Shown here: positions 2,418 through 63,262 of the stretch, piece after piece
How positions within the stretch are numbered: the first letter of the stretch is position 1
How the letters are laid out: each line of letters starts with the position of its first letter
Source: Comamonadaceae bacterium
GTDB taxonomy: Bacteria; Pseudomonadota; Gammaproteobacteria; Burkholderiales; Burkholderiaceae_C
DNA length: 64,000 nucleotides
Direction of reading: 5' to 3'
NCBI GenBank assembly: GCA_031414805.1
Contig: JANOQJ010000088.1
Location: forward strand, 12,882-76,881
Made by a program: the position numbers and the translations under genes
The notes under the pieces: generated by a model
Told to the model about the DNA's origin: nothing
The model's database searches: none
Seen by the model: only the letters and a program-made list of their open reading frames with translations

Positions 2418-3221
2418 TCATGGGCGCGCCAGCGCCGTCATCTTCATGGCCAGCGCCACGTATTCATCAACAGGCACCTCTTCGGCACGACGTTGCGCAT
2501 CAAAAGGCTCGTCGTGCTGATGTTCTTCCAGCCAGCGCCCCAGCGTGTGCCGCAAAATTTTGCGGCGCTGGCTGAACGCCACCTGCACGATTTCCGAGAG
2601 CAGTTTGACATCGACGTCGGGTGGCTGCGCCAGCGGCACCATGCGCACCACCGAGCTGTCGACACGGGGCGGTGGGTTGAATGATTCGGGGGGCACATGC
2701 AAAACGTGCTCCATGGTGTAGCGCCATTGCAGCATCACACTCAGGCGGCTGTAATCCGCCGTGGCAGGCCTGGCCAGCATGCGGTCGACCACCTCTTTTT
2801 GCAGCATGAAGTGCTGGTCTTGTATGTGCTGTGCGAATGGCAAGAGATGAAACAGGATGGGCGTGGAGATGTTGTAGGGCAAGTTGCCCACCACACGCAG
2901 TGAGCCACGATTTGCTACTGAATTAATAGCTGTTTCAGCAGTATTTATAAGGGCAAAGTCCACTTTTAATACATCGGCCTCAATCACCGTCAACTGCGGG
3001 TGCTCACGCAGCCGCACCGCGAGGTCGCGGTCCAGCTCGATCACGGTGAGATGGCCCAGTCGCTCAACCAGGGGCTGCGTCAGTGCGGCCAGACCCGGGC
3101 CGATTTCGACCATGTGCTGGCCCGGCTCTGGCGCAATGGCGGAAACGATGGCCTCAATGATCCCGCCGTCGGCCAGAAAGTGCTGACCAAAGCGCTTGCG
3201 GGCAACGTGCTTCATGCTCAC
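2418..3221 (-). CDS. rsmA: 16S rRNA (adenine1518/1519-N6)-dimethyltransferase
   Basis: [19 protein letters not shown] and [17 protein letters not shown] motifs. ATGA overlap with the surA stop. Contains repeat copy 2914..2970 in frame. Confidence 0.93.
2914..2970 (+). repeat. structured ~60-nt repeat, copy inside rsmA (forward orientation)
   Basis: gctactgaattaatagctgtttcagcagtatttataagggc plus tail. Confidence 0.8.
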
Positions 3222-4597
3222 TCAGGTTGCGCGCGCAACTCCACAAACGCCCGGCCACGCACCTCTTGCGCCCAGGTCAGGTACGCCTCTTCCAGCTTTT
3301 TCTCTTTGACCATGCCGCGCGCCAGCTCGCGTTGCTCGCGCTGGCCCAGGGTGGTCTGGCGGCGCTCTTGCACCTCGATCAGGTGCACGCCGAAGCGTGA
3401 AACCAGCGGCTCGGCCATTTGCCCGGGGTTCAGGTTGTTCATCACGTCTTCAAACTCCGGCACAAACTGCCCGGGGTTGGCCCAGCCCAAGTCGCCGCCA
3501 CTGGCGGCACTGCCGTCTTGCGAATGCTCGCGTGCGAGCGCCGCAAAGTCGGCTTGGCCAGCCTGGATGCGACGTTTGTAGTCTGCCAACCGGGACACCG
3601 CGGCGGACTGCGACAGCTGGGCACCGGTGCGCAACAGGATGTGCCGCGCACGGGTTTGCGTGACGCTCATGCCCGGCATGCCGGCCTGGCGCTTTTCAAG
3701 CACTTTAAGGATGTGAAAACCGGCACCCGTTCGCACCAGCGGGCTGACGCCGCCTTCGCGCAGATCAGCCGTGGCCTGCACAAAAGCCGGGGGGTAGCGC
3801 TCGGCACTGCGCAGGCCAAACTGACCTCCGCTGGCGGCATTCGTACCCTCGGACGTTTCGCGCGCCAGCTTGGCGAAGTCTTCACCGGCCAATGCACGCG
3901 CCAGCACCTGCTGGGCGCGCGCCTGGATGGCGGCGACCTGGGCTGACGTGGCGTTTTCGGGCACCACCAGCAGCACATGCGCCAGGTTGATTTCCATGTT
4001 TTGCAAGTCGGTGCTGCCCTCCTGCTCGCGCAGGAATTGGTCCACCTCGACGTCGCTGACGCGGATGCGGGCATCGACCTCTCGCTCGCGCAAGCGCGTC
4101 AGCAAAATCTGGTTGCGCAACTCGTCGCGAAACTGGCCCACGCTCACACCGTCGGCCAGCAGTTGACGGCGCATTTGCGGCACCTCCAGCTGGTTTTGCC
4201 GCGCCACGGTGCGTTCGGCCTCGTCTACGGTGTTGTCGTCGGCCCGCACACCCGAGTCGCGCGCCAACTGCAGCTGGGCGCGCTCACCAATGAGCCGCTC
4301 CAGCACCTGCGCGGTCAACTCCGCGCGCGGCGGCAGGGGGGAGCCTTGTGCGGTCAGCTGCTGCTCGACCCGCACCAAACGGGCTCGCACCTCGTTATTG
4401 GTAATCGGCTCGGAATTGACCACGGCCACGATGAAGTCCGCCGAGCGCGGCGTGGTGTCCACGGCGCGCTGGATCGTGACGGCGGGGGCACGGCTGCCAC
4501 CCAGTTGGGGGGTGGAGCGCAACTGGGCCTGCGCGGGCCACGGCGCAAGCGCCGCATAAACCAAAGACACAGCAACGACGAAATTAAGCTTTTGCAT
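3218..4597 (-). CDS. surA: periplasmic chaperone / peptidyl-prolyl isomerase SurA
   Basis: Signal peptide and two parvulin-type PPIase segments (HILL..., GGDLGW...). Sits in the conserved position between lptD and rsmA. Confidence 0.9.
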
Positions 4598-4624
4598 GGG
4601 GCGTGCCTGTATCAGAAAAAGTGA

Positions 4625-7122: not shown

Positions 7123-8208
7123 ATGACCCACCCGACCGAACCGACCACTGTCTCCAACCCCATTGTGTGGGCCGATCACGAGCGACAAACGGCGTTCAAC
7201 AAATGGCTGGCCACGGTCAGCGGCCCACAGGCATTGATGCCCGAAAGCCTACGCAGTGCCTCGGCCGACGCCAGTTTTCGCCGTTACTTTCGCATTGATC
7301 AGGCCGCAGGCGGCAGCCGCATCATCATGGACGCGCCGCCCACGCTGGAAGACTGCAAACCGTTTGTCAATGTGGCTGCGTTGATGCGCCAGGCCGGCTT
7401 GCAAGTGCCAGACGTCCTGGCGTGGGACGAAACCCAGGGCTTTATGCTGCTCAGTGATGTGGGTCAGCACACCATGATGCAGGTGCTGAAGCCAGACGAG
7501 CCGCAGGCCAATCAGGCTTTGTTTCTGCAAGCGGCCGATGAGTTGGTGCGCTGGCAACTGGCTTCCCAGCCCGGCGTGCTGCCCGTCTACGACGCGCCGC
7601 TGCTGACCCGCGAACTGGCCTTGTTTCCCGACTGGTACATCGCGCGCCACCGCGCGGTGGTGCTGAGCGACAAGCACCAAGCCATTCTGGACAAAGCGTT
7701 GCAACTGATTGTTCAGCGAAATCTCGCCGCCGCCAGCGTCTATGTGCACCGCGATTTCATGCCCCGGAATTTGATGATGCCCACGGGAGACAACACCCGC
7801 CTGTCGATCCTGGACTTTCAGGACGCTGTCTATGGCCCCATCACCTACGACATTGCCAGCCTGATGCGCGACGCCTTCATTAGCTGGGACGAGGAATTCG
7901 TGCTGGACATCACGGTGCGCTACTGGCAGCGCGCCCAGAAAGCCGGGCTGCCGGTCGACGCGGACTTTGGCGACTTTTACCGCGCGGTGGAGTGGATGGG
8001 CTTGCAGCGCCATTTGAAAATAGCGGGCATTTTTGCCCGCATCACCCTGCGGGACGGCAAACCCAAATACCTGGCTGACACGCCACGCTTCATCGGCTAC
8101 ATCCGCGCCACCTGTAACCGCTACCGCGAGCTGGGGCCGCTGCTGCAGGTGATTGACCACATCGAAGGCACGCAGGCTGCCACGGGTTACGCGTTTGGGC
8201 GCGTGTAG
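7123..8208 (+). CDS. aminoglycoside-phosphotransferase-fold kinase (AmgK-like MurNAc/GlcNAc anomeric kinase candidate)
   Basis: APH-fold catalytic motif VHRDFMPRNLM and ILDFQDA. The divergent arrangement with lptD is typical for amgK. No murU follows it here. Confidence 0.6.
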   Translation: MTHPTEPTTVSNPIVWADHERQTAFNKWLATVSGPQALMPESLRSASADASFRRYFRIDQAAGGSRIIMDAPPTLEDCKPFVNVAALMRQAGLQVPDVLAWDETQGFMLLSDVGQHTMMQVLKPDEPQANQALFLQAADELVRWQLASQPGVLPVYDAPLLTRELALFPDWYIARHRAVVLSDKHQAILDKALQLIVQRNLAAASVYVHRDFMPRNLMMPTGDNTRLSILDFQDAVYGPITYDIASLMRDAFISWDEEFVLDITVRYWQRAQKAGLPVDADFGDFYRAVEWMGLQRHLKIAGIFARITLRDGKPKYLADTPRFIGYIRATCNRYRELGPLLQVIDHIEGTQAATGYAFGRV

Positions 8209-8220
8209 TGCTGTTTGTGG

Positions 8221-8277
8221 CACTTTTAGGCCTCTAGCCCTTGTAAATACTGCTCAAGCAGCTATTGAATTAATAGC
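8221..8277 (-). repeat. structured ~60-nt repeat, intergenic copy (reverse orientation)
   Basis: cacttttaggcctctagcccttgtaaatactgctcaagcagctattgaattaatagc. Confidence 0.9.
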
Positions 8278-8292
8278 AAAATAAAACAAACC

Positions 8293-9027
8293 ATGCCCCG
8301 TTTTCACTGCCCCACCCCGCTGCATACGGGCTTGAGTCTGGATCTGCCGCCCAGCGCCGCTCGGCACGTGCAGGTGCTGCGACTGCAGCCGGGCAGCGCC
8401 ATCACCCTGTTCAACGGCGAGGGCGGTGAATACGCCGCGCAGGTTGAACTCATGGGGCGAAGCGACGTGCGCGTGACGGTGGGCGCGCATGACCCGGTGG
8501 CGCGTGAAGCAGCCCGCGCCGTCCACCTGTTGGTGGGTATGCCCACCAACGAGCGCATGGACTGGCTGGTGGAAAAAGCCACCGAACTGGGTGCCGCCAG
8601 CATCACGCCCCTGGTAACCGAGCGCACCGTGCTCAAGCTGTCCGGCGAGCGGGCCGATAAAAAACGCGCCCACTGGCAGGCTATTGCGGTGGCGGCCTGC
8701 GAGCAGTGCGGGCGCAACCGGGTGCCGGTGGTGCATGCGGTGCGGGCTTTTGGCGCGGAAATAACGACAGGTTTGGCTGCGACCACCCCGCAGCGTTGGG
8801 TCCTCAGCCTGAGCCCGCAGGCGCAAAGCCTTCATGGCTTGCTCACGGCGGCTGCGCCACCGGCTGTCACCCTGCTGTCCGGGCCCGAAGGCGGCTTGAG
8901 CGCAGCCGAGGAGGCCCAGGCCCTGGCGCAGGGCTATGCTGCGCTGTCGCTGGGTCAGCGCACACTGCGCGCTGAAACCGCACCGCTGGCTGCCTTGGCT
9001 GCGATTGACTTGTTACTCCTGAATTAA
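8293..9027 (+). CDS. rsmE: 16S rRNA (uracil1498-N3)-methyltransferase
   Basis: MPRFHCP start, and LVGMPTNERMDWLVEKATELG and LSGPEGGLS motifs. The stop codon lies inside repeat copy 9014..9077. Confidence 0.88.
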   Translation: MPRFHCPTPLHTGLSLDLPPSAARHVQVLRLQPGSAITLFNGEGGEYAAQVELMGRSDVRVTVGAHDPVAREAARAVHLLVGMPTNERMDWLVEKATELGAASITPLVTERTVLKLSGERADKKRAHWQAIAVAACEQCGRNRVPVVHAVRAFGAEITTGLAATTPQRWVLSLSPQAQSLHGLLTAAAPPAVTLLSGPEGGLSAAEEAQALAQGYAALSLGQRTLRAETAPLAALAAIDLLLLN

Positions 9028-9077
9028 TAGCTGCTTGAGCAGTATTTACAAGGGCTGGAGCCCGATTTGACATAAAA
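9014..9077 (+). repeat. structured ~60-nt repeat, spans the rsmE stop codon
   Basis: tactcctgaattaatagctgcttgagcagtatttacaagggctggagcccgatttgacataaaa. Confidence 0.9.
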
Positions 9078-9088
9078 AGAACCCCACC

Positions 9089-10295: not shown

Positions 10296-10763
10296 ATGGG
10301 ATTATTGGATTCGGTTTTAGGCGCAGTCGCGGGACAAATGGGTGGGCAACAAAATCAGGCGGCGGCTGGTGGGCTGGGTGGCATTTTGAGCATGGTGGCC
10401 AACAACCCACAGATGCTGCAGGTCATCACCGGCATGCTGGGTAACGACGGCCAGCAAGGTGGCCTGGGCGGCTTGATGGACAAATTCCAGCAGGCTGGCA
10501 TGGGCGACGTGATGGGCTCCTGGGTGGGCGGTGGCCAGAATCAAGCCATCAATGGCGACCAGCTCAGCCAGGTGCTGGGTGGCGATGCGCTCAGCAGCAT
10601 TGCCGAACGACTGGGCATGTCGCAAGGCGACGCGGCGGGCCAACTGTCGCAAATTCTGCCGGGGCTGATTGACCAGCTCACACCGCAAGGTCAGGCACCT
10701 GCCGGTGGCCTGGGTAACAGCGGTGATTTGATGGGAATGCTGGGTGGTTTGCTATCTAAATAA
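10296..10763 (+). CDS. YidB-family (DUF937) glycine-rich protein
   Basis: MGLLDSVLGAV start, G/Q-rich middle and GMLGGLL end. The stop lies inside repeat copy 10751..10812. Confidence 0.7.
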   Translation: MGLLDSVLGAVAGQMGGQQNQAAAGGLGGILSMVANNPQMLQVITGMLGNDGQQGGLGGLMDKFQQAGMGDVMGSWVGGGQNQAINGDQLSQVLGGDALSSIAERLGMSQGDAAGQLSQILPGLIDQLTPQGQAPAGGLGNSGDLMGMLGGLLSK

Positions 10764-10812
10764 TAGCTGTTTGAGCAGTATTGATAAGGGCTGACGGCTC
10801 TTATCATCAAAA
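10751..10812 (+). repeat. structured ~60-nt repeat, spans the yidB-like stop codon
   Basis: gctatctaaataatagctgtttgagcagtattgataagggctgacggctcttatcatcaaaa. Confidence 0.88.
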
Positions 10813-10832
10813 TTTTGGCAACTGGGTGCGCG

Positions 10833-13369: not shown

Positions 13370-13459
13370 GGGTGAGCTCCTGAAAGTGGCCGTTCGACAA
13401 ATAGCCACCACTTTACGCCGCCTGCACGGCACCACACAGTCACCTGGGTGCTTTGTTGC

Positions 13460-14035
13460 TCAGGCTACGAATTTTTTACTCAGCCATTGCAACAAGACCC
13501 GTTGATCAGCCGCAGTGGCGCGCCGAACCTGTACGAGCAATTTGGTGAGATCCGGACGCTGCAACGTCAAATTCGACGCACCTTCGTTACAGACCGAGCA
13601 GATCGCACGCAAGTTACCTGGCTCGTCTCCTCCACCCAGGCTTTTGTCGATGACGTGCCCAATATGCAGCCTCGTTTTACGGGTTGCATCGTAAGGATGT
13701 ACTTCGCCAGCGACAGCGCCGCACATCTGGCAAGTGAATCCATTGCGATCCAGCACAAAGGCTCGCGCTTCTTTGGAGATTTCCCGTGCAAAAGCGGGGC
13801 GGGGCTTGCCACTTTCCAATAGGTATTGCCCAGGTTTGAGTTGCGCGCGGTCGTTATGGGTCTGGATTAAGTAACCTTCCTCATTGCGCAACTCACGGAC
13901 GCGGCGCGCCCATTCGCTGATGCCGCCAGCCACGGCACGCAGCTCCTCGGAGTCCACAACACGCCCCAAATTGGCCAGGAAATGCGCGCGCAACTTGGCT
14001 CTTGCCCCGCGCGAAACTTTGGCGTTGGTCGTCAT
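13460..14035 (-). CDS. HNH endonuclease (candidate type II restriction enzyme)
   Basis: HIGHVIDKSLGGGDEPGNLRAICSVCN is an HNH/beta-beta-alpha-metal motif. Its start overlaps the methyltransferase stop by 4 nt. Confidence 0.75.
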   Translation of the reverse strand: MTTNAKVSRGARAKLRAHFLANLGRVVDSEELRAVAGGISEWARRVRELRNEEGYLIQTHNDRAQLKPGQYLLESGKPRPAFAREISKEARAFVLDRNGFTCQMCGAVAGEVHPYDATRKTRLHIGHVIDKSLGGGDEPGNLRAICSVCNEGASNLTLQRPDLTKLLVQVRRATAADQRVLLQWLSKKFVA

Positions 14036-14991
14036 GCCGCCCTGCGCAAGACTCGGCCAGCCGCCGCTGTTTCGATGGCCAGGGCGATTTGACCGCTAAC
14101 GGCCTGGGCGACAGGTGGCGGAAATGCATTTCCTACTTGGCGATAGCTAGTCGTTTTCTTACCGAAAAGCGCCCAGTCATCGGGAAAACCCTGAACCCGC
14201 GCGCACATGCGAACCGTTAGCCGGGGCATTCCAACAAAGTCTGCGTCAGGTGCAGCATCGGCCAGACTGCGGCCTTCTACACCCAGGCTAGCCCAAGCCG
14301 CTCGAGCTCGTGTGGGACCCAAGTCAGGCCCTCCATGTTTTTTGCTGCCTCCCACCAACGTAGGTGCGATGTCGTTCGCACGCCTGCGCCAAGCATCAGC
14401 GCCACGCCAGCCGTTAGCCGCCATCAAGTCGTGTAGCAACTGGCCCACGGTCGGAGGCAGCCGCATGATCGGTGCAGGCCACTGAAAGTGCTGAGCCACG
14501 TCTTTTCGCAGGGCCACAAAAACCACGCGTGGGCGCAGTTGGCAAACTCCAAAGTCCGATGCGTTGAACAAATGCCAGTCGGTCCAATAGCCCAGAGCCT
14601 GCAATTGCGCAGCAATCTTTTGCCGGTAATCCACAAAAACCGCGTCTAACAAACCTCGGACATTTTCCAACATCACGGCTTGTGGACGGGTTTCATCAAC
14701 CACCCGAATAGCCTGAGGAAACAAATCGCGCGCGTCCTGCTCGCCTAATTGTTGGCCCGCTTTTGAAAAGGGCGGGCATGGGACGCCGCCGGCCACCAAG
14801 TCCACCCCTTGATAAGGGCGTGCATCGAACGCCGCCACGTCACCCTCGATCACATTCCATGCTGGACGATTCAAGCGCAGGGTGCTACAGGCCGCAGCAT
14901 CCAGTTCGACCAACGCTTCATGTTCAAAGCCTGAACGCTCCAGACCCAAGGCTTGACCGCCCGCGCCGGCACACATTTCTAATGAGTTCAT
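14032..14991 (-). CDS. dcm: DNA (cytosine-5)-methyltransferase
   Basis: Motif I EMCAGAGG, motif IV GGVPCPPFS, motif VI ENVRGL and a C-terminal QVGNAFPP. Confidence 0.9.
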   Translation of the reverse strand: MNSLEMCAGAGGQALGLERSGFEHEALVELDAAACSTLRLNRPAWNVIEGDVAAFDARPYQGVDLVAGGVPCPPFSKAGQQLGEQDARDLFPQAIRVVDETRPQAVMLENVRGLLDAVFVDYRQKIAAQLQALGYWTDWHLFNASDFGVCQLRPRVVFVALRKDVAQHFQWPAPIMRLPPTVGQLLHDLMAANGWRGADAWRRRANDIAPTLVGGSKKHGGPDLGPTRARAAWASLGVEGRSLADAAPDADFVGMPRLTVRMCARVQGFPDDWALFGKKTTSYRQVGNAFPPPVAQAVSGQIALAIETAAAGRVLRRAA

Positions 14992-15077
14992 GTTTGGATC
15001 GTTTGCTAGATAAATCTGATCTGTTGGTCACGCTTTGCAGAGTCACTGACAAGCATTAAGACGCAGCACTTTACCCC

Positions 15078-16457
15078 CTAGCCGACCAGAAAGCTCTTAA
15101 TCAGTAAACCCGCCACCGCGCAGCCCGCAATCACGGGAATCACCCCAGCCTTTTGGCTGAACAGCATCCACGCAGCGGCCAGCATGACGACCACTGCCGC
15201 CCAGTCGATTTGGGCATAAAAAGGGCCTTCAGCCCTTTTATTGATTGCTACAGCAGCTATAAAAAACAGAGCAAGATGTGCCATCACACCTACCACCGCC
15301 GCGCTGATGGCTGTCAATGGTGCGGTGAACCCCAGCTTGCCGTGGGTCGATTCCACCAGGGGACCGCCCGCCAGGATGAAGATGAATGAGGGTAAGAAGG
15401 TGAACCAGGTCACGACCACCGCGGCCATTGCGGCCCCCATAAACAGCATGTCGGGCCCTAGCACCTGCCGGGCCCAGCCCCCCAAAAAGCCGACAAAAGC
15501 CACCACCATGATCAGCGGGCCCGGCGTGGTCTCGCCCAGGGCCAAACCATCGATCATTTGCGCCGCCGTCAGCCACTGGAAATGTTCCACCGCGCCCTGG
15601 TACACATAGGGCAGCACTGCATAAGCACCGCCAAAGGTCAGCAGCGCAGCTTTGGTAAAAAACCAGGCCATTTGCGTCACCGTGCCCTGCCAGCCAAAGC
15701 TCAGCAGCAAAGCCGCCATGGGCAGCAACCACAGCGCCGCACCGACCACCAGCACGGTGGCCAGGCGGCTTCGGGAAAAGCGTGCGTGGATGGGCGTGGG
15801 CGTGCCATCGTCGATCGCTGCGGGTGGGTGCGCCGCATCCGTCTCAGCTTTCCCCGCATGACCGCCCGGTCCCGCAAATTGCCCCGGTGCCCAGCGCGAG
15901 CCCAGCCAACCAACCACCGTGGCCACCAGCACGACCGCTGGAAACGGCACGTTCAAGAACGCAATTGCTATAAAACTCATAGCTGCCAGAGCAGTTAATA
16001 CAGGGGCCTTTGTCGGTTTCTTCAATACTTTGCTGCCGATTCGCCAAACCGCGTGCACCACAATGGCCGCCACCGCAGGCTTGATGCCGTACAGCAGCGC
16101 GGCCACCCACGGCACCTGGCCAAACACCACATACACCCAGCTCAGCGCTATCAAAATGAACAGCGACGGCAGCACAAACAGCACGCCCGCCGCCACGCCG
16201 CCCCAGGTGCGGTGCATGAGCCAGCCGATGTAGGTGGCCAGTTGCTGCGCCTCCGGTCCGGGCAGCAACATGCAGTAATTCAGCGCGTGCAGAAAACGCC
16301 TGTCGGAAATCCACCGGCGCTCATCCACCAGCACACGGTGCATCAGCGCGATCTGCCCGGCCGGGCCGCCAAAGCTGATAAAGCCCAGCTTGAACCAGAA
16401 GGCCAGCGCTTGGGTGAATGAAATGGTGTTTGGGTTGTGGTCGGTGGTGGCGATCAT
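15078..16457 (-). CDS. chrA: chromate efflux transporter ChrA
   Basis: Two CHR halves (FGGPAGQIALMH, TFGGAYAVLPY). Start taken at ATG 16457; upstream in-frame ATGs exist. Carries two degenerate repeat copies in frame. Confidence 0.88.
   Translation of the reverse strand: MIATTDHNPNTISFTQALAFWFKLGFISFGGPAGQIALMHRVLVDERRWISDRRFLHALNYCMLLPGPEAQQLATYIGWLMHRTWGGVAAGVLFVLPSLFILIALSWVYVVFGQVPWVAALLYGIKPAVAAIVVHAVWRIGSKVLKKPTKAPVLTALAAMSFIAIAFLNVPFPAVVLVATVVGWLGSRWAPGQFAGPGGHAGKAETDAAHPPAAIDDGTPTPIHARFSRSRLATVLVVGAALWLLPMAALLLSFGWQGTVTQMAWFFTKAALLTFGGAYAVLPYVYQGAVEHFQWLTAAQMIDGLALGETTPGPLIMVVAFVGFLGGWARQVLGPDMLFMGAAMAAVVVTWFTFLPSFIFILAGGPLVESTHGKLGFTAPLTAISAAVVGVMAHLALFFIAAVAINKRAEGPFYAQIDWAAVVVMLAAAWMLFSQKAGVIPVIAGCAVAGLLIKSFLVG
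15231..15267 (-). repeat. degenerate repeat copy inside chrA (reverse orientation)
   Basis: agcccttttattgattgctacagcagctataaaaaac has about 27/38 ungapped matches to the reverse consensus. Its reading frame is the same as the dprA copy. Confidence 0.5.
15967..16007 (+). repeat. degenerate repeat copy inside chrA (forward orientation)
   Basis: gctataaaactcatagctgccagagcagttaatacaggggc has 31/41 ungapped matches to the consensus. Confidence 0.65.
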
Positions 16458-17455: not shown

Positions 17456-17556
17456 CGTCTATCTGTGAAGCAGGAGTTTCAAGATTCGGGAGGCTGCTTT
17501 CCCGATAGCTCAGATGATAGCTTGCGTTTTGATTCGACTCGCCAACTCACTCCGGG

Positions 17557-18893: not shown

Positions 18894-20768
18894 TCAAAGC
18901 TTCAACGCGTCCAATCCCTTGATGAAGTTTCGCTTGGCTTTGTATTCTGCCCGCAGGCGTGCCAGCCACTGACCGTGGTCTGGCTGCTTCATGAGAGACG
19001 CTACTTCCGCAACCAGCTCCAACACGTCGGTGTAGGGCGTGCTGGCTTGCGGCATGCGCGCTGCGAAAACGCGGTGCAGCAGCGCCAAAGCCTCTGCCGG
19101 TTTTGTGTCGCGAATCTTTTTGGCAAGCGTGTAGAGCAATTTATCGTCACACGCATGCGGGGGCTGCACCAGCGCCAGCGCCTCATCGGTTTTGCTTTCG
19201 TGCAGCAACCAGGTCGCTCGCGTGGTGACGGATCGCCCTGTGTTTGTGGGTCTTGAAAAGTACAGGCGTGACGGCTTGGATTTCGCGTCCTGCACTTCAC
19301 GTGCCGCCACCCACTCGTACAGGGATGCGCGGTAAGTCTGGCGGTCATGCCCCGCCGCCACAGCAGCTTTCAGCACGGCGTCAAACTTCTCGGGGCTGGG
19401 GTTGTGCTCCAGGCGGGTGCGATGAATGGCCAAGGCTTCCGCGTCCCAGCCATCGCGCTCGTAGCAGCGCAGCAAGTCGTCCTGGATGCGCCAGTCTTGC
19501 GGAAAGAGTTTGCGCGCCTTGAGCGCGTAGTCCAAGGCCTCGCGCATTTTGTTCATCGACTCACACCAGGCGATCAGCTCGCTGTGTTCGTGTGCCTCCT
19601 GCAGGCTGGCAGACAGCGCTTGCAGCACGGCTGCGTCATCGCCTTGACGCTTCAGGTCTTCGATGTAGCGTCGGCGCAGCTGCGATCGCTCGGCATCCCA
19701 TCCCCCAGAAACACCCGTGAAAATCAGGCTACGTGCCTTGCGCTTGCCCTGGGCATCAAACGAGGTTTGCTCAGACATTGACTGAACACAAGCCAACCAA
19801 TCGGCTTGCACCCGCTCGCTGTAACGTTTTTGCACCAATGGCCCTGCAACTTCGAGCACGTCGGACTCGCGCCACAAGCCCCAGGGGTCGGCCTCCATCA
19901 ACGCAAACCATTCGTCCAGCCATTGCGCAGGCGGCGGCGCGGCCTTCAGTGTCTTGAGCAGCAAGGCTTGCACGCCATACATCAGGTCGCCAATCATGCC
20001 GCCCGAATCGTCAGCGTGTTCGCCCACCTTGTACAGCTTGCGCAGCGCATAGGCGCAGGCTGCGCGGCCTTGTTCGGGCGAAGCGTGTGCAATTCTCTCA
20101 AGCAGGGGATAGACCGCCTCGGCACGTCTGGCGTAGGCGTTGGATTCAGCCCAGCCATAAAAACTGCGCGACTTCTCCAACATGGTGGCAATGGCGTCTT
20201 TCCAGCCACCCGGTTCCTGCACCGCCACGCTCTGCGCATGCCACGACTTCAACACCGCCATCAGGTCGCGGTCTGTCTCGGCCAACTGCCACAGCTTCTC
20301 AGCCAAACTGGTGGCGTCCTGGGCAAACACAAAGGCCTTGAGTGCATCCCGCTTGCTGGCGACGGTGGCCTGGCGTTTTTGGGACGCTATTGATTTAATA
20401 GCTGCTTGAGCAGTATTTGCAAGGGCTGGAGCGGCATTTCCTTCTAATTTACAGCGCCAGAAGAGGCCTGCGGCCACCATGTGCTTGCAAAACGCGCCTT
20501 CTTGCGCATGCGGGCAGGTACATGCCGTGTGCAGGCCTACGTCTTCAAAATACAACTCGGTGCTGTAGGTCTGCGTGCCTTTGACCGTGAACGTTGCATT
20601 GCCTCCGCCATCACGCGGCATGCTGACCTTGCCTGCGGAAAAATAGGCATGCCCGCGTTCAAATATGTCTTCGCCCGCCATCTCACGCAGCGCATCGTCT
20701 GACAACTTTTCGGCCCAGTTGTCAGTAATCTCTGCCCAACGTGCCGCGAAGTCTTTTTTTACTGCCAT
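18894..20768 (-). CDS. SWIM zinc-finger protein with a long helical-repeat C-terminal region
   Basis: CxCx(n)CxH signature [14 protein letters not shown] near residue 90. The remainder is alpha-helical repeat-like. Repeat copy 20386..20445 is in frame just after the SWIM motif. Confidence 0.75.
20386..20445 (+). repeat. structured ~60-nt repeat, copy inside the SWIM gene
   Basis: gctattgatttaatagctgcttgagcagtatttgcaagggctggagcggcatttcc. Confidence 0.9.
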
Positions 20769-23589: not shown

Positions 23590-23638
23590 TGCTACGGCCC
23601 GAAGAAGTATCAATAGTGTGTGGCTCCGAGGAATAGTC

Positions 23639-23702
23639 GCTACTAAATCAATAGCTGCTTGAGCAGTATTCGCAAGGGCTAGTGGCCGATTTGGCACTAA
23701 AA
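23639..23702 (+). repeat. structured ~60-nt repeat, intergenic
   Basis: gctactaaatcaatagctgcttgagcagtattcgcaagggctagtggccgatttggcactaaaa. Confidence 0.9.
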
Positions 23703-23708
23703 CGGCAT

Positions 23709-23781
23709 GTTTTGCGCCCTCCCCTCCCGGGGAGGGCTGGGGTGGAGCCGGCTGTTCAACTGCCCGGCTCGCGTGACTTGG
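23709..23781 (+). repeat. second repeat module (C-rich hairpin plus gttcaact...gacttgg), copy A
   Basis: gttttgcgccctcccctcccggggaggg...tgttcaactgcccggctcgcgtgacttgg is roughly 75% similar by eye to 25792..25866. Confidence 0.7.
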
Positions 23782-25707: not shown

Positions 25708-25720
25708 GTCGTATTCAAGC

Positions 25721-25784
25721 GCTATCGAATACGTAGCTGCCTGAGCAATCAATTCAAAGGCTGTAGCCGTATTTGGCAGTGAAC
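25721..25784 (+). repeat. structured ~60-nt repeat, diverged intergenic copy
   Basis: gctatcgaatacgtagctgcctgagcaatcaattcaaaggctgtagccgtatttggcagtgaac. Confidence 0.75.
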
Positions 25785-25791
25785 TGAGCCA

Positions 25792-25866
25792 GTTTTGCTT
25801 CCTCCCCTCCCCTCCCGGGGGCAGGTGTGGGTCAGGTTGTTCAACTCCCCTGTTCGCTTGACTTGG
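25792..25866 (+). repeat. second repeat module, copy B
   Basis: gttttgcttcctcccctcccctcccggggg...tgttcaactcccctgttcgcttgacttgg. Confidence 0.7.
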
Positions 25867-27172: not shown

Positions 27173-27178
27173 ATGACG

Positions 27179-27772: not shown

Positions 27773-27861
27773 GATCCCTTTTTTGCGTCTCAGGATGTAG
27801 CGTGCTCCTACAGAACCTACGCCAAATCCACTTGCGCGCTTCTTGACAGCATAACCAAAAA

Positions 27862-29969: not shown

Positions 29970-30126
29970 AGAGGATCGATCATGCCGACTCTTTACGTAA
30001 CGGAGCGCCCAGTGGTTTCAAATGGTTCGACATCAAAGGGGCAAGCACAGCTTCCTGAAGGGCGGCAGAGCATTCCGTGCGGCAACATCCGCAGCACCGT
30101 TCCCCGCGGAAACAGGCAGTTTATAG

Positions 30127-30182
30127 AGAAAACAGCCATCAGCCCTTATAGATACTGCTCAAGCAGCTATTATAAACGTAGC
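30127..30182 (-). repeat. structured ~60-nt repeat, intergenic (reverse orientation)
   Basis: aaaacagccatcagcccttatagatactgctcaagcagctattataaacgtagc. Confidence 0.88.
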
Positions 30183-30199
30183 AAAAAGCCTCAGAACTA

Positions 30200-34315: not shown

Positions 34316-34319
34316 GCGG

Positions 34320-41204: not shown

Positions 41205-41274
41205 GGGCTTTGAGTGTGGGGACGCGGGACGTCCATGGCAGGAATCCTACAATAGGTTTTCTGTCGGAGTACGC

Positions 41275-42099: not shown

Positions 42100-42116
42100 T
42101 CAGCCTGCTGTGCGCT

Positions 42117-43583: not shown

Positions 43584-43656
43584 GGCTGTCTCCGTTCGGT
43601 TGAGCCTATATTCTTACCGCACGGGGTTACCAATTGGGTACAGGTTTGAATTGGTT

Positions 43657-43720
43657 GCTATTAGTTATATAGCTGGTTGAGCAGTATTTAAAAGGGCTAG
43701 AAGGCTATTTCACTCATAAA
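43657..43720 (+). repeat. structured ~60-nt repeat, pyk-pgk intergenic
   Basis: gctattagttatatagctggttgagcagtatttaaaagggctagaaggctatttcactcataaa. Confidence 0.88.
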
Positions 43721-43730
43721 CAATGCACCC

Positions 43731-44933: not shown

Positions 44934-44968
44934 GGCGGTGTGCACGGGTTAAGTGAAACGATTGAGTT

Positions 44969-45031
44969 GCTATTAAAATAATAGCTGCTTGAGCATATTT
45001 TATAAGGGCTGATAGCCGTTTTGATACAAAA
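44969..45031 (+). repeat. structured ~60-nt repeat, pgk-azlD intergenic
   Basis: gctattaaaataatagctgcttgagcatattttataagggctgatagccgttttgatacaaaa. Confidence 0.88.
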
Positions 45032-45049
45032 CAGTTACGGGTCGGCCTG

Positions 45050-46132: not shown

Positions 46133-47125
46133 TCAGGACGGGTTGGGCGCAGGCGGGCCGCCAAACACCATACCGGGCTTCAATTCAAAGCCACGCAAAA
46201 AGTCAGCGACCGCCAGGCGCTTGCCGCCAGCGCGCTGCAGCTCGGTGATGCGCAGGGTACCGCTGCCGTCATGACCACAGACCACCCCAATGGCTTCGTC
46301 ATTTACATAAGAAATAGTGCCACAGACCTTGTCAATACTGCTCAAGCAGCTATCAATTTCGCAGTGCCAAAGCTTGATGACTTCGCCATTCAAGGTGGTA
46401 AACGCACCCGGAAACGGGTTGAAGGCGCGCACCTGGCGGGTCAGGCTGGCGGCATCTTGCTGCCAGTCCAGCGCGGCTTCGGCTTTTTCAATTTTGTGGG
46501 CGTAGCTGATGCCGGTTTCGGGTTGTTTGACCGGTTTCAGTGCGCCTTGACTTGCCAATTGCAGCGCTTGCACCATCAGCCGCCCACCCATCTGCGCCAG
46601 CGCATCGTGCAGGCTGCCGGTGGTGTCGGTGTCGGCAATGGGCAAGGCTTGCGTCAGCAGCATGTCGCCGGTGTCCAGGCCCGCGTCCATCTGCATGATG
46701 GTGATGCCCGTTTGCGTGTCGCCTGACTGCACGGCGCGGTGAATCGGTGCCGCGCCGCGCCAACGGGGCAGCAGGGAGGCATGAATATTGAAAGCGCCCA
46801 GACGTGGCGCGTCCAGCACCCATTGCGGCAGGATCAAGCCATAGGCGGCGACGACCATGGCGTCGGCCTGTGCCGCCAGGATAGCTTCGCGCGCAGCCTG
46901 CGCGTCGTCAGGAAACTTGCCGTCCAGACGAAGGCTGCGGGGCTGGGCCACCGGGATCTGGTGCGACTGGGCAAACTGCTTGACGGCAGACGCGTGTAGT
47001 TTCAATCCCCGTCCTGCGGGGCGATCCGGCTGGGTGAGCACCAGCGCAATCGAAAACCCGCTGGTATGCAGCTGCTGCAGGGCAATGCTTGCGAACTCGG
47101 GCGTGCCCGCGAAGATGATGCGCAC
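46133..47125 (-). CDS. fmt: methionyl-tRNA formyltransferase
   Basis: [26 protein letters not shown] motifs. Located downstream of def. Repeat copy 46324..46367 is in frame in the C-terminal domain. Confidence 0.93.
46324..46367 (-). repeat. repeat core inside fmt (reverse orientation)
   Basis: agaccttgtcaatactgctcaagcagctatcaatttcgcagtgc. Confidence 0.8.
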
Positions 47126-49633: not shown

Positions 49634-50830
49634 GTGACCGCTTCGGTGTGGGACTCGGATGAACTGGCCGCCTGGTTGCGGCTGTTGCTGACACCGGGCA
49701 TCGGCAACACCAGTGCGCGCAGCCTGCTCAAGGCATTCGGCCCGCCGCAAGCTATTTTTGACCAGCCTGTCAGTGCTTTGCGCCAATGCGTCAGCGCGGC
49801 GCAGGCAGCTGCACTACACACCCCACCGCCCAGCCTGCCCGCGTTACTGCTGTCCACAACGCAGTGGCTAGCAGACTCGCAAGCGGAAGGCGCCAGCCCG
49901 CCACCTATTCGCCGCTTGCTCACGCTGGCCGACGCGAACTACCCCTCGGCACTGCTGGAAATGGACGACCCGCCATTGCTGTTGTACACGCTAGGAGCGG
50001 GCACCTTTGTCACCACGCTGCCAATGCGGGCCATCGCCGTGGTGGGTAGTCGCAACCCCACACCGCAGGGACTGGTGAATGCCCAGGCGTTTGGGAAAAG
50101 CCTTGCGCAAGCGGGCCTGACCGTGATTTCCGGTCTGGCACTCGGCATCGACGGGGCGGCACACGAAGGTGCGCTGCAGGGCGCGGCAGACGGCCAGTTG
50201 TCCACCGTTGCCGTGGTGGGCACCGGGCTGGACCGCGTCTACCCCAAACAGCACCTGGCGCTGGCGCGGCGCATTGCGCAGCAAGGTTTGCTGATCAGCG
50301 AGTATCCCTTGGGCACACCCCCCTTGCCTGCCAATTTCCCCAAGCGCAACCGCATCATTGCGGCGCTGAGTTCGGGCACGCTGGTGGTCGAAGCAGCGCT
50401 CAAATCAGGCTCATTGATCACGGCGCGTCAGGCACTGGAGCAAGGCAAAGAGGTGTTTGCGATTCCGGGCTCCATCCACACCACACAGGCGCGCGGTTGC
50501 CATTGGTTGATACGCCAGGGAGCCAAACTGGTGGAGTCGGCGCAGGACGTACTGGAAGAGCTTCGAATCCCCGCTCCGGCCTTAGACACTCCTGATTTAA
50601 TAGCTGCTCAAGCAATATTCACAAGGGCTGCAGCGTCAAATGAGTCTAAACCAGGACGATCGAACAGTCTGTTAAGCGATTTGGGTTATGACCCCATCAC
50701 CCTGGACGCCTTGATGAACCGCACGGGTCAGGACGCTGCGACGCTGCAAGCGCACCTGTTGGAGTTGGAACTGGAAGGCTTGGTGGCGCGCATGCCCGGC
50801 GGCCAGTTTCAGCGCATTGCGAGCGCCTGA
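49634..50830 (+). CDS. dprA: DNA-processing protein DprA (Smf)
   Basis: VVGSRNPT, SGLALGIDGAAH, NRIIAALS and GSLITA motifs, plus a C-terminal winged-helix segment. Repeat copy 50588..50636 is in frame in the interdomain linker. Confidence 0.9.
   Translation: MTASVWDSDELAAWLRLLLTPGIGNTSARSLLKAFGPPQAIFDQPVSALRQCVSAAQAAALHTPPPSLPALLLSTTQWLADSQAEGASPPPIRRLLTLADANYPSALLEMDDPPLLLYTLGAGTFVTTLPMRAIAVVGSRNPTPQGLVNAQAFGKSLAQAGLTVISGLALGIDGAAHEGALQGAADGQLSTVAVVGTGLDRVYPKQHLALARRIAQQGLLISEYPLGTPPLPANFPKRNRIIAALSSGTLVVEAALKSGSLITARQALEQGKEVFAIPGSIHTTQARGCHWLIRQGAKLVESAQDVLEELRIPAPALDTPDLIAAQAIFTRAAASNESKPGRSNSLLSDLGYDPITLDALMNRTGQDAATLQAHLLELELEGLVARMPGGQFQRIASA
50588..50636 (+). repeat. repeat copy inside dprA, central loop inverted
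   Basis: actcctgatttaatagctgctcaagcaatattcacaagggctgcagc. It shares the actcctga left arm with copy 9014. Confidence 0.8.
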
Positions 50831-56666: not shown

Positions 56667-56778
56667 GGACACTCCAGGCAGGCAGGGCTGCGAACAGACA
56701 CACAACAATGAGCCGCGGATTGTATGCGTCGCATCGCCCGCCGACGCGATTACATGAAGTCACAACAAACCACATGTT

Positions 56779-56836
56779 GCTATTATTTATATAGCTGTTT
56801 GAGCAGTTTCCACAAGGGCTGAAGGCACTTTTAGCC
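56779..56836 (+). repeat. structured ~60-nt repeat, abuts the stop codon of the oxidoreductase gene
   Basis: gctattatttatatagctgtttgagcagtttccacaagggctgaaggcacttttagcc. Confidence 0.85.
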
Positions 56837-59800
56837 TCAAGCGGCCTGTTTTTCCGTGTTTTGCGTCGTTTGCCACTGCTGCACCAACTGGGTCCAACGC
56901 TGGCGTGCCGCCACCAGGTTGCGCTCCTTCACATGTCCAAAACCGCGAATCTGCTCGGGAATCCGGGCGATGTCGATGGCGATCGCATGGTTGTGGGCTG
57001 CCAGCCCCGGCAGCACCGCGGCGATGCTCTGGCGGTACTCTTCAATCAGCGCCCGCTCCATACGGCGCTCATCGGTTTTGCCAAACATGTCCAGCGCTGT
57101 GCCGCGCAAGACTTTGAGCGGCGCCAGGAAACGAAAAGCCACGCGCATCCAAGGGCCAAATTTAGACTTTTGCAGTTCGCCCTTGTCGTTTTTCTTGGCA
57201 ATCAGCGGCGGGGCGAGGTGGTAGTTCAGCTTGTAGTCACCCTCAAACATGTTGCTGATCTTGTCGTGGAAGCTACGGTCGGTGTGCAGACGGGCCACTT
57301 CGTATTCGTCTTTGTAGGCCATCAGTTTGAACAGGTAGCGGGCCACGGACTCGGTCAGTACCGTTTTACCGAGCGGTGCCTCGGCGAGGCGCACCTGCTC
57401 GACGAAGGCTTGGTAAGTCTGCGCGTAGGTGGCGTTTTGATAAGCCGTCAAGAACTCGACGCGTCGGGCCACCAGGCTATCCACTGTTTCGCGTTTCTTG
57501 AATTCGATCACCTGCGCGCCCGCGCCATTGACCAGGCTTTGCACCGATGGCAAATCGTGCGCGGCGCGGCGACCCCAGGCAAACGCCGCCTTGTTTTGCT
57601 CAATGGCCACGGCATTCAGCTCAATGGCCAGCGTCAAAGATTCAAAGCCTAACGGTACCCAGCCTTTTTGCCACGCGTAGCCCAGCAGCATGGGGTTGGT
57701 GTAAATGCTGTCACCCATCAGCTTGGTTGCAGCACCATCGGCATCAAACAGGCCCGTCGCGTCGGCACCGACGGCTTGCGCAATGGAGGCGGCGCAGGCG
57801 TCAGCTGGGTTGTTCCAGTTGGCGTTTTTCACAAATGCCGCCGTGGGCGTGCTGTGGGTGTTCAGCGCCACATGGGTGCGGCCCGCGCGCATGCGAAGCA
57901 GGGTTTCTTTGCCAGCCGCCACCAACGGATCGCAGCCAATGATGAGGTCGGCCGCCGCCATACTGACCCGGGTGGTGCGAATGGCGTCCGCATCGTCGCC
58001 AATCAACACATGGCTCCAGGTGGCACCGCCTTTTTGCGCCAGACCACCCGCGTCTTGCGTGACCACGCCTTTGCCTTCCAGGTGCGCGGCCACGCCCAGT
58101 AGCTGGCCAATGGTGATGACGCCGGTGCCGCCCACACCTGCCACCACAATGCCCCACACGGTTTGGCCGGCGGTTTGCGGAATCACCGGATCGGGCAACT
58201 CACCCAAGCTGAAAGGCGACGGCACTTGCGCCTTGGCCTTCTTTTTGAGCTGCCCGCCCTCCACGGTGACAAAGCTGGGGCAAAAGCCTTTAACGCAGCT
58301 GATGTCTTTGTTGCAGGTGCTCTGGTTGATGGTGCGCTTGCGGCCAAACTCGGTTTCAAGCGGCTCCACAGACAAGCAGTTGGACTGCACCCCGCAGTCG
58401 CCGCAGCCCTCGCACACCAGCTCGTTGATCACCACGCGTTTGGCCGGATCCACCATCGTGCCGCGCTTGCGGCGGCGGCGCTTTTCGGTGGCGCAGGTCT
58501 GGTCGTAAATGATGCAGGTCGTGCCTTTGATCTCGCGGAACTGCTTTTGAATCGCGTCCAGCTCGTCGCGGTGGTGCACGGTCACCCCAGCGGCCAGCGC
58601 CACGCCTTCATATTTTTCGGGCTCGTCGGTCACCACAACGGTTTTCATAGCGCCTTCCGCCAGCAGGCTCTGGGCGATCTGTACAACCGAGTGACCTTCA
58701 GGCCGCTCGCCGACTTGTTGGCCACCCGTCATGGCCACGGCATCGTTGTACAGAATCTTGTAAGTGATGTTCACGCCCGCCGCAATCGCCTGGCGAATCG
58801 CCAGCAGGCCGCTGTGAAAGTAGGTGCCGTCGCCCAGGTTGGCAAAAATGTGCTGGTCGGTGGTGAACGGCTGCTGGCCCACCCAGGGCACGCCCTCGCC
58901 GCCCATTTGCGTAAAGCCCACCGTGCTGCGGTCCATCCACGTGGCCATGAAGTGACAGCCGATGCCGGCCATGGCGCGCGAGCCCTCGGGCACCTTGGTG
59001 CTGGTGTTGTGCGGGCAACCGGAGCAAAACCACGGTTGGCGGTCTGCGCCTTGCACGCCGCCCAGTTGCAGCGTTTGCATGGACGTTTCTTTGGCTTGCA
59101 GGATGGCTAGCTGCGCATCGATACGCGCCGCCATGTCGCCACCAACCCCCAGCTTTTTCAGGCGCTGGGCAATGGCTTTGGCAATGATGGCGGGCGACAG
59201 GTCGGCGTTCGCGCGCAGCAGGGTGTTGGCGGTGGGGTTGGCCATCGACCACTCGCCACCCTCCGCTTCGTCAAACTTGCCCAGCACATTGGGGCGCACG
59301 TCGGCGCGCCAGTTGTACAGCTCTTCTTTCAGTTGGTACTCAATAACCTGGCGCTTTTCTTCCACCACCAGAATCTCGCGCAGCCCGGTCGCAAATTCGC
59401 GTGTGCCCTGCGCCTCCAGCGGCCAGACCACGCCCACCTTGTGCAGCCGAATGCCGAGCTGGCGGCAGGCGTCGTCGTCCAGGCCCAGGTCGATCAAGGC
59501 CTGGCGGGTGTCGTTGTAAGCCTTGCCGCTGGCGATCAGGCCGAAGCGGTCGTTCGGGCCTTCCACCACGTTGTAGTTCAATCGGTTGGCGCGGATGTAG
59601 GCCAGCGCGGCATACCACTTGTAGTCAAACAGTCGCGCTTCCTGCTCCAGCGCATGGTCGGGCCAGCGAATGTGCAGGCCGCCAGGCGGCATCTGAAAAT
59701 CGGCGGGGATCTTGATCTGCACTCGATGCGGATCAATCATGGCCGTGGCGCTGGATTCCACGATTTCCTGAATCGTCTTCATGCCCGCCCACACGCCTGA

Positions 59801-63150: not shown

Positions 63151-63176
63151 AGCCCGGCAGTGCCGGGCTTTTTTTG
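63151..63176 (+). terminator. rho-independent terminator downstream of phoX
   Basis: AGCCCGGC-agt-GCCGGGCT stem-loop followed by TTTTTTT. Confidence 0.8.
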
Positions 63177-63197
63177 TATCTGTCAACAGATCATATT

Positions 63198-63262
63198 GCT
63201 ATATTAAACATAGCTGCTTGAGCAGTATTTATAAGGGCTAGCGCCCTATTTCGGCCATAAAA
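63198..63262 (+). repeat. structured ~60-nt repeat, tail encodes the mltA C-terminus and stop
   Basis: gctatattaaacatagctgcttgagcagtatttataagggctagcgccctatttcggccataaaa. Confidence 0.9.

Follow-up and report, generated by a model that had tools for sequence, protein, structure and literature searches.

The DNA analysed here, referred to as the window, is a 64,000-nt stretch from a Comamonadaceae bacterium (assembly GCA_031414805.1, contig JANOQJ010000088.1, positions 12,882 to 76,881), and it carries a family of AT-rich repeats of about 65 nt dispersed through its spacers and several of its genes. A profile built from the copies given in a preliminary description of this DNA was searched over the window with nhmmer and exactly sixteen copies were found with E-values of 2.9e-21 to 3e-11, the next match having an E-value of 0.5. 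At least fifteen copies had been claimed before, and all of the start positions and strands then given, including that of a degenerate copy near 15231 on the reverse strand, matched copies of the profile search. The 16-nt core CTGCTTGAGCAGTATT was matched thirteen times with up to three mismatches against 0.54 matches expected by chance, and none of 100 shuffles got to thirteen. The G+C content of the window is 60% while the element itself is AT-rich. The window copies read in order GCTAY-N7-RTAGC, CTGCTTGAGCAGTATT, (A/T)GGGCT, a variable GC-rich part and ATTT...AAAA, and the anatomy of inverted repeat, core, GGGCT, variable GC-rich part and A/T tail first proposed was correct. In an alignment of 194 copies, which included 75 loci picked by an exact core match, the left part consisted of (T)TGCTAY, an A/T-rich 7-nt spacer and RTAGC fused to CTGC-TTGA-GCAG, followed to the right end by TATTTACAW, GGGCT-N3/4-GSCC and the ATTT...AAAA tail. 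The inverted repeats (GCTAY-N7-RTAGC and CTGC-N4-GCAG) are internal, and the ends (TTGCTAT... and ...ATTT-N-AAAA) are not mutual inverted copies. The copies form one dispersed non-autonomous repeat family and not a CRISPR array, as had been proposed, and Pfam searches confirmed that the window encodes neither a transposase nor an integrase.

Ten copies were located between genes. A minus-strand copy (8208..8281; E 2.7e-18) lies between the tandem genes for an APH kinase (ending at 8208) and rsmE (starting at 8293), and a plus-strand copy (9010..9083; E 2.9e-21) overlaps the last codons and stop codon of rsmE and ends 6 nt 5' of the start codon of a major facilitator superfamily (MFS) transporter gene. 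Between the convergent yidB-like and hydrolase genes a plus-strand copy (10748..10815; E 6.7e-17) supplies, with its left arm, the C-terminus of YidB (GLLSK and the stop). The hybrid histidine kinase gene (23893-25707) has a plus-strand copy upstream in a tandem context (23635..23707; E 7e-21) and another directly after its stop codon, in a convergent region facing a DarG-like gene (25718..25791, plus strand; E 7.8e-15). A minus-strand copy (30115..30185; E 4.9e-18) is located at the left edge of a 12-kb island, between esterase and methyltransferase genes. Plus-strand copies occupy the tandem spacers pyk/pgk (43653..43727; E 1e-16), where the copy is antisense to both genes, and pgk/azlD (44964..45038; E 2.6e-17). 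A further plus-strand copy (56775..56846; E 4.3e-17) exactly fills the gap from the yajC start to the stop codon of a gene for a 1214-aa oxidoreductase, and the last (63195..63267, plus strand; E 2e-18) lies between the convergent phoX and mltA genes just past a canonical intrinsic terminator. A second short repeat directly follows the copies at 23635 and 25718 (~23712-23760 and ~25795-25845), bracketing the histidine kinase gene in two versions, TTTTGCGCCCTCCCCTCCCGGGGAGGGCTGGGGTGGAG and TTTTGCTTCCTCCCCTCCCCTCCCGGGGGCAGGTGTGGG.

The ten intergenic copies together make up about one fifth of all intergenic DNA in the window, and the intergenic enrichment of copies was about 15-fold. Among spacers of at least 50 nt, a copy was present in seven of the fourteen tandem and three of the five convergent spacers, or 10/19, compared with none of the five divergent ones. 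The description of a repeat running through the gaps and several genes was right in that the copies were mostly intergenic, and can be made more exact since six of the sixteen were located inside genuine coding sequences.

These six copies were found in five genes. The plus-strand copy in rsmA/ksgA (gene 2418-3221, minus strand; copy 2910..2975; E 4e-15) is antisense to the gene, encodes part of a surface loop and is covered by the Pfam RrnaAD domain. The chromate transporter gene chrA contains two copies, a degenerate sense copy on the minus strand encoding FFIAAVAINKRAEGPF (15210..15274; E 3e-11) and an antisense copy on the plus strand at a native segment, APVLTALAAMSFIAIAF (15963..16036; E 2.7e-13). 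The gene for a SWIM zinc-finger protein (18894-20768, minus strand) contains an antisense plus-strand copy just past the CxC...CxH motif (20383..20454; E 2.4e-19). In fmt a sense copy on the minus strand (46296..46369; E 5e-16) falls in the C-terminal domain and is covered by Pfam Formyl_trans_C, and in dprA a sense copy on the plus strand (50584..50657; E 6.9e-15) encodes the linker before the winged-helix domain, as placed by Pfam and by alignment with a PDB structure, with the consensus TGA changed to CAA.

The range of the family was examined with a related clade defined from the closest Fmt and RsmA relatives, which consisted of genome A (GL133/LIUY22 type, 85% coding-nucleotide identity to the window), genome B (bin27, JAAFIW01, represented by locus L026; 81%) and genome C (JGI Ga0654434; 77%). 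Fmt of true Polaromonas was about 70% identical to that of the window. An exact 20-mer scan with one genome per species gave at least 75 loci, so that confinement of the repeat to the window was excluded, and among the matches listed all were in metagenome-assembled genomes, with the label Polaromonas or Comamonadaceae and, in one case, Rhizobacter. In four related genomes sampled via gene anchors, a sampling with no bias toward repeats, the density was about one copy per 3-4 kb. There was no copy in 719 kb of other Comamonadaceae DNA (80 fmt-anchored metagenome loci), and the same DNA held about eight related elements in which the left palindrome is the same and the centre another; degenerate relatives were also present in Polaromonas and Rhodoferax. 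No match was found in the plasmids or viral contigs searched. The search for an Rfam family proposed in the preliminary description was run on the repeat and gave no match at gathering thresholds or at E <= 1. The family fills a narrow clade near Polaromonas in the Comamonadaceae.

The copies are old. Eleven of the twelve window copies that were checked against three to four related genomes had a positional counterpart in one or more of them, and the flanking intergenic DNA of orthologous copies no longer aligns. The exception was the chrA copy at 15963, whose sole available ortholog (L026) scored below noise. The copy at 8208 between the APH kinase gene and rsmE has orthologs in L160, L161, L162 and the Rhodoferax locus L165 and is degenerate in Polaromonas sp. 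C04 (L164), while the rsmE-MFS copy at 9010 has orthologs in L026/L160 and L161 and a relic in L164. At the position of the yidB copy (10748), only the left arm is present in L026/L160, genome A (L161) is without an element and genome C (L162) has one inverted. Orthologs were also found for the copies at 25718 (L158 19440-19508), 43653 (L156, and partial in L158), 50584 in dprA (L156 and L159) and 56775 at yajC (L156, L158 and L159), and L156 carries a copy at the pyk-esterase junction corresponding to that at 30115. The copy at 44964 has orthologs in L156, L158 and L159, all with the site-specific variant GCATATTTTAT. Such deviations common to orthologs argue for vertical descent and indicate that conversion between copies was not frequent on this timescale; frequent gene conversion among copies was considered unlikely for these species since site-specific variants are inherited by the orthologs.

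Identity at fourfold-degenerate sites between the window and genomes A, B and C was 0.62, 0.61 and 0.53, respectively, as against 0.95, 0.91 and 0.94 for the 16-nt core ATAGCTGCTTGAGCAG and 0.88, 0.85 and 1.0 for the left arm; the 7-nt spacer that forms the loop was at 0.69, 0.61 and 0.71. These comparisons show copies that have evidently been inherited vertically and fixed in position for longer than silent sites take to saturate, and a first part of about 33 nt that is under purifying selection for its sequence and not for base pairing.

In genome A the rsmE frame (L161 4188-4940) reads on across the element that follows and ends at a TAG in its third hairpin, and in the window and genome B rsmE stops in the loop of the first hairpin. 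The position of the rsmE stop therefore differs by genome, and the element supplies variable C-termini and stop codons.

Within genes the motif overrides codon bias. The G+C content at third codon positions (GC3) in the six genic copies was 0.13-0.50, compared with 0.71-0.76 in the remainder of each gene, with values inside the copy and in the rest of the gene of 0.17 and 0.76 for rsmA, 0.38 and 0.73 for the chrA copy at 15963, 0.13 and 0.71 for the SWIM gene and 0.21 and 0.74 for dprA. The element consensus contains stops in five of six frames, and the open frame on the bottom strand (NTAQAAI) recurs in many unrelated proteins, accounting for 27 of the 55 copies that lie in an open reading frame (ORF) running through them. 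About one third of the family copies lie within ORFs and the genic copies fall in poorly conserved protein segments. Taken with the spacers, copies were shown to occur at the 3' ends of genes, in tandem or convergent spacers, or in tolerant parts of genes.

A position weight matrix (PWM) was scored at the orthologous sites, with the best score per 105-nt window as the null (n=2753; mean -73, maximum -25.7). At chrA site 1 (15963) the scores were 39.5 in the window, 30.8 in genome A, -28 in B, -60 in C and -8.9 in Rhodoferax, and at chrA site 2 (15210) they were 52.9, 54.6, 18, 21 and 1.0 in the same order. For fmt the window, A, B and C scored 60, 66, 37.5 and 21 and the outgroups 7.7 to -52, and for rsmA the corresponding values were 63, 66, 60 and 18, with 14.5 in Polaromonas C04 and -16 in Rhodoferax. 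At both chrA sites, fmt and rsmA the scores climb stepwise from the outgroups to C and B and on to A and the window.

That the copies in genes might be chance resemblances arising from coding constraint, with a family that is intergenic only, draws on the native ChrA (AAMSFIAI) and Fmt (EIDSC) segments, which already resemble the left module in distant relatives. The genic copies nevertheless had nhmmer E-values of 3e-11 to 2e-19 and PWM scores of 39-63 against the null maximum of -25.7 over 2753 windows, GC3 collapses locally at them and the bottom-strand peptide NTAQAAI recurs in many unrelated proteins, making a chance origin scarcely credible.

Both chrA segments have identical length in 120 ChrA homologs, with the consensus segments APVLWAVAAMSFIAIAF and FFIAHIAIKTGATGPF. 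The chrA copies showed no indel relative to L026, and the residues of the window clade are derived relative to the 120-homolog consensus and are encoded by AT-rich synonymous codons. The fmt segment equals that of other Comamonadaceae Fmt in length and is 2 aa longer than in E. coli. Its widespread state is C-L-R-P-S-D (TGC TTG CGC CCG ...), which in the window clade has become TGC TTG AGC AGT ATT GAC AAG G, the repeat core. The alignments show that the chrA and fmt motifs arose by substitution, without length change. In rsmA the loop with the copy is 7 aa longer than in Burkholderia RsmA (3uzu); this loop has 8-10 residues in Variovorax-type, Burkholderia and E. coli proteins, and most Comamonadaceae carry xTAQAAIxxIAN there. 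The rsmA copy is at the same site in L160, L161 and L162 and is degenerate in Polaromonas C04, where the left palindrome is kept at the DNA level as GCTATCGAAGCAATAGC.

The three parts of the element differ in range. When the PWM was divided by module the left part was positive in most genomes and the centre was positive only in the clade of the window, most strongly in the window and genome A. In other Comamonadaceae the centre is TGYYTGCGCYYGT, as seen in fmt; rsmA of Polaromonas C04 and two intergenic L112 copies have it as well. The presence of this other centre at orthologous sites, including sites inside genes, indicates that the centre evolves in a lineage-specific manner and in concert, a conclusion that is well supported at four sites with few outgroup copies sampled. 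Other Comamonadaceae also carry element variants of their own inside dprA and fmt, at positions unlike those of the window. In dprA they were located in the N-terminal region (L112 ~1480-1540 and L132 ~7650-7710), for example ...SAQLKRAQTATKIIAVN... just before the DprA IVGSRNP motif, and in fmt in the 3' part (L078, L088, L131 and L132), for example AAMNSIV in Fmt.

The repeats had been described as structured. Six copies were folded on both strands and gave dinucleotide-shuffle z-scores of about -0.1 to -0.7, with one copy as the exception at -2.3 and -1.9 on its two strands. Among the 194 aligned copies the left-arm changes G6>A and T10>C were present in 63 and 62 copies, respectively, without a compensating change in the right arm. 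Four candidate helices in a gap-free alignment of 65 copies contained standard pairs in 82.3% of cells compared with 81.8% in column-preserving shuffles, and 85 of 500 shuffles equalled or exceeded the observed paired-cell score. The covariation score in this alignment was 0.099 against 0.094 in the shuffles, with none above the control. Since the pairing is matched by shuffles of the same column composition, the inverted repeats are conserved as sequence, and the term structured was unsupported beyond the short inverted repeats, folding being no more stable than in shuffles and covariation absent.

An RNA element acting after transcription, such as a 3'-UTR stabiliser, terminator, processing site or small RNA family, would fit a repeat that adjoins gene 3' ends and has short hairpins somewhat more stable than mononucleotide shuffles, more so on the top strand via G.U pairs. 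Such a role was judged very unlikely, as dinucleotide-shuffle z-scores were near 0 with no covariation, no terminator-like site was found inside the elements, there was no Rfam match even at E <= 1, many copies are antisense within coding sequence and the orientation relative to flanking genes was mixed. A promoter or terminator role was rejected after consensus scans placed neither a sigma-70 promoter nor an intrinsic terminator consistently in the elements.

Among 117 adjacent pairs from all loci, 60 had the same and 57 the opposite orientation, and orientation relative to neighbouring genes was likewise mixed, which argues against a fixed RNA role and against a single-strand transposition biased to the lagging strand. 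A replication-strand bias, suggested by the 12:4 strand split in the window, was rejected by the same 117 pairs, and an IS200/IS605-type palindrome-associated transposable element was considered unlikely with no strand bias present. The motif was shown to be independent of transcription and replication direction. Eight of the 117 pairs were closer than 400 nt, spaced 220-396 nt apart with unrelated interiors, and a composite element formed from inverted pairs about 370 nt apart was rejected since these interiors are non-homologous.

The only long stretch of the window free of copies is the 12-kb island (30031-42109), which contains glycosyltransferase, TPR, FecR-like and methyltransferase genes without any copy. 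It is missing from genomes A and C, and in L156, L157 and L158 the esterase gene and pyk have no such island between them. Recently acquired DNA was shown to lack the motif. Within the island a 1732-aa fusion protein with TPR, GT41, GT2 and GT1 domains is encoded (34320-39518).

The preliminary description compared the repeat to repetitive extragenic palindromic (REP) sequences or to MITEs (miniature inverted-repeat transposable elements). A non-autonomous mobile element of the MITE or REP type, the latter including REP doublets (REPINs) and their REP-associated tyrosine transposases (RAYTs), would have its transposase elsewhere in the genome, its copies being insertions conserved through recent common descent. 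Its length, its internal inverted repeats and its position at gene 3' ends where it supplies stop codons would fit, as would the placement of (A/G)TAG immediately 5' of the CTGC-TTGA-GCAG hairpin, an arrangement similar to the GTAG and palindrome of REPs. Here it is ATAG that precedes CTGC-TTGA-GCAG, GTAG being present in 20 of 194 copies, and the hairpin has a stem of just 4 bp. The filled and empty rsmE-MFS states differ by an indel of about 75 nt, rsmA holds an ancient in-frame insertion, and REP classes are known to change with their RAYTs (10.1101/2021.07.10.451892; PMC3686654). Set against this, the element is without terminal inverted repeats and no target duplication was seen at the single empty site, 11 of 12 checked copies are orthologous across genomes with saturated silent sites, conservation is position-specific and not uniform, the 12-kb island was not colonised, and the chrA and fmt copies are present without insertion. 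REPIN-type close inverted doublets were not seen. The suggested RAYT search was run with E. coli RayT in phmmer and gave no match in the 3844 ORFs of about 720 kb of DNA from the clade, which is only a few percent of the genomes. We therefore consider a mobile element unlikely, its remaining credit coming mainly from the real indels that show past copy-and-paste. Of the behaviour first proposed, a REP-like role may still apply, membership of the REP/RAYT systems being at most putative, while a mobile MITE was not borne out given the lack of terminal inverted repeats, the old orthologous copies and the uncolonised island, and mobility is contradicted by the two in-gene cases that arose without insertion.

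A motif that improves in place invites comparison with the DNA uptake signals of natural transformation. Uptake signal sequences (USS) and DNA uptake sequences (DUS) accumulate by substitution in tolerant coding positions (PMC2817400), and the comamonad Verminephrobacter eiseniae has sequence-specific natural transformation with no known uptake sequence (PMC4212676), which makes the idea testable. Under such an explanation the repeat would be an uptake signal or "self" watermark whose motif-improving mutations spread by drive at tolerant sites. In its favour the motif arose in place by substitution without indels in chrA and fmt and overrides codon bias, centre variants are lineage-specific at orthologous sites, the two orientations are equally frequent, the protein segments that hold copies are poorly conserved and one reading frame (NTAQAAI) is preferred, and the island, plasmids and viral contigs are devoid of it; these features match those described for USS/DUS in coding regions (PMC2817400). 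The spacing of copies was also more even than random when the island was left out (coefficient of variation 0.59, P = 0.024, post hoc), the corresponding value with the island being P = 0.27. The motif is, on the other hand, far longer and richer in information than the known 9-12 bp uptake cores, its density of 1 per 3-4 kb falls short of those of Neisseria and Haemophilus, its intergenic enrichment is about 15-fold, there are real indels of about 75 nt, competence has not been demonstrated in the clade and the left palindrome is conserved even in copy-poor lineages. On this balance our analysis would place an uptake signal as decidedly unlikely. The more specific proposal that the motif is a self-recognition signal of this Comamonadaceae clade, for uptake or recombination, and represents a third and unusually long composite kind of uptake sequence was regarded as quite improbable. 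If it were true, a bias in uptake or conversion would push the entire genome, with its essential genes, toward a "dialect" of the lineage, and the motif would supply the missing specificity determinant for the sequence-specific transformation of Verminephrobacter.

We favour, at about even confidence, a selected sequence-specific DNA recognition motif that is REP/BIME-like (BIME, bacterial interspersed mosaic element) or uptake-signal-like, and not an active MITE. The family would then be a clade-specific, member-rich version of an old Comamonadaceae family of AT-rich interspersed motifs of about 65 nt built from three modules: a left module (GCTAY-N7-RTAGC), a lineage-specific centre, here CTGCTTGAGCAGTATTTACAA, and a right module (GGGCT-N3/4-GSCC with a T/A tail). 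Old copies at the same places, with their sequence kept by selection even in essential genes, behave like a recognised DNA signal and not like a jumping element. The motif may act on DNA as the recognition site of a putative trans-acting and lineage-specific factor to which each site would be matched, via selection or a biased, drive-like fixation. Matching of every site to such a factor would explain why the family is uniform, and a function like that of REP/BIME or uptake signals would follow from it. Transposition, if it once spread the family, is probably not what maintains it now.

Several observations weigh against this recognition motif. The function on DNA is inferred only by excluding alternatives, since no binding factor was identified. 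The rsmE-MFS copy is absent from genome C (L162) as a clean indel of about 75 nt; this comparison of filled and empty sites (window vs L162) was the sole one of its kind, and with diverged flanks no target-site duplication was visible. Relative to Variovorax, Burkholderia and E. coli the rsmA motif is, by alignment, an ancient in-frame insertion, and these two real indels indicate that a copy-and-paste mechanism acted at some time. The conserved information (a near-invariant 16-nt core and the arms) exceeds that of most protein sites and is more typical of descent from a single master. Core conservation in the 194-copy alignment was inflated because 75 loci were chosen by an exact core match, a bias of which the ortholog comparison is free. 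Part of the stepwise gain in genes could reflect differential decay, and the G.T wobble pairs, with which the top strand folds slightly better, leave room for a stage as single-stranded DNA or RNA.

Other features of the window were noted around the repeats. The chromate resistance operon consists of chrB (16523-17455) and chrA (15078-16451), and directly upstream of it a chrB-b RNA (RF03086) was identified at 17436-17505 on the minus strand with 46.7 bits against a gathering score of 36.5. At 13385-15109 lies a module without repeat copies whose genes code for a C5 cytosine DNA methylase (14032-14991) together with an HNH endonuclease (13460-14035). The module is missing at this place in bin27 (L026), adjoins chrB in genome C (L167 1-1525) and seems to be mobile, of a restriction-modification or Vsr type. 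A DarT-DarG toxin-antitoxin pair (26054-27928, minus strand) consists of a DarT thymidine ADP-ribosyltransferase of single-stranded DNA (27179-27928; PF14487) and a macro-domain protein (26054-27172). Beside rsmA, a pair comprising a barnase-type ribonuclease and its barstar inhibitor (1114-2114) was identified by synteny with L160.

If the repeats are indeed a selected recognition motif, about 1000 sites per genome would be held to one 33-nt sequence by a constraint that overrides codon usage and alters residues in fmt, rsmA, dprA and chrA, and positions of the family would have been kept since before the Comamonadaceae genera split. The family would provide a natural system for how dispersed motifs stay uniform, whether by binding-factor selection, biased conversion or uptake bias. 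It would also offer a concrete candidate for competent comamonads and serve in these genomes as a marker of native as opposed to newly acquired DNA. Software that calls genes or annotates repeats will misread the sites, which include stops and C-termini supplied by the element and NTAQAAI-type peptides in unrelated proteins.

Several known repeats resemble the family in part. The Rickettsia palindromic elements (RPEs) are 100-150 bp in length and always add 30-50 residues. They were reportedly described by Ogata et al. in 2000 as palindrome-containing repeats inserted in frame inside protein-coding genes. The likeness lies in in-frame genic repeats in tolerant loops, such as the rsmA loop, where at least 7 aa were gained over the outgroups. 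The copies at both chrA sites and in fmt differ from RPEs in that no residues were added and length was unchanged, and the family is mainly intergenic. In Polaromonas naphthalenivorans CJ2 the spaced motif ATAGCT(N)22CAAAAG was noted as a potential novel motif of unknown role with 125 copies, 101 of them in intergenic DNA and 18 in genes, with 34 lying between convergent genes (Tong et al. 2017, PMC5217627). The ATAGCT block is common to both and the genus is related, whereas the spacing and right-hand block differ, AAAA lying here about 45 nt after ATAGCT. The CJ2 motif was never characterised and its density is about 10-fold below that of the family described here. The betaproteobacterial repeat element (BRE) was reported in Polaromonas sp. 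JS666 with some copies within coding sequences (Hot et al. 2011, PMC3110155); identity with BRE was rejected by sequence comparison, BRE being unrelated with 69% GC (TTTTTTTGGCCGCGGGCCGCCCAAGGC...).

The DUS of Neisseriaceae and USS of Pasteurellaceae are alike in arising by in-place substitution, including in coding DNA, in their preference for a reading frame and equal use of the strands, and in their lineage "dialects" at orthologous positions and absence from newly acquired DNA (PMC2817400). They are 9-12 bp (about 30 bp with flanks) and occur about once per kb, compared with a conserved block of about 33 nt, 65 nt in all, at a 3-4x lower density with a stronger intergenic bias and some true indels for the present family. 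REP/BIME systems, with RAYT, gyrase and integration host factor as partners, persist vertically and change class together with the RAYT (10.1101/2021.07.10.451892; PMC3686654). The REP/BIME/REPIN-RAYT systems of Enterobacteria, Pseudomonas and Stenotrophomonas are similar in that their short extragenic copies number from hundreds to thousands, lie at the 3' ends of genes in either orientation, persist vertically over long times and fall into sequence classes specific to a lineage, with (A/G)TAG placed immediately 5' of a small hairpin. Whereas REPs are palindromes of 20-25 nt rich in GC, the present element is AT-rich with hairpin stems of only 4-5 bp, and unlike REPIN-RAYT systems the family has no close inverted doublets and no RAYT was found in the roughly 720 kb of clade DNA. 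About one third of its copies lie in ORFs and copies have arisen in place within genes, in which it also departs from REPs. The finding is not categorically new and falls in the REP-like or uptake-signal-like class of selected interspersed motifs, its unusual feature being a motif written into essential genes against codon bias.

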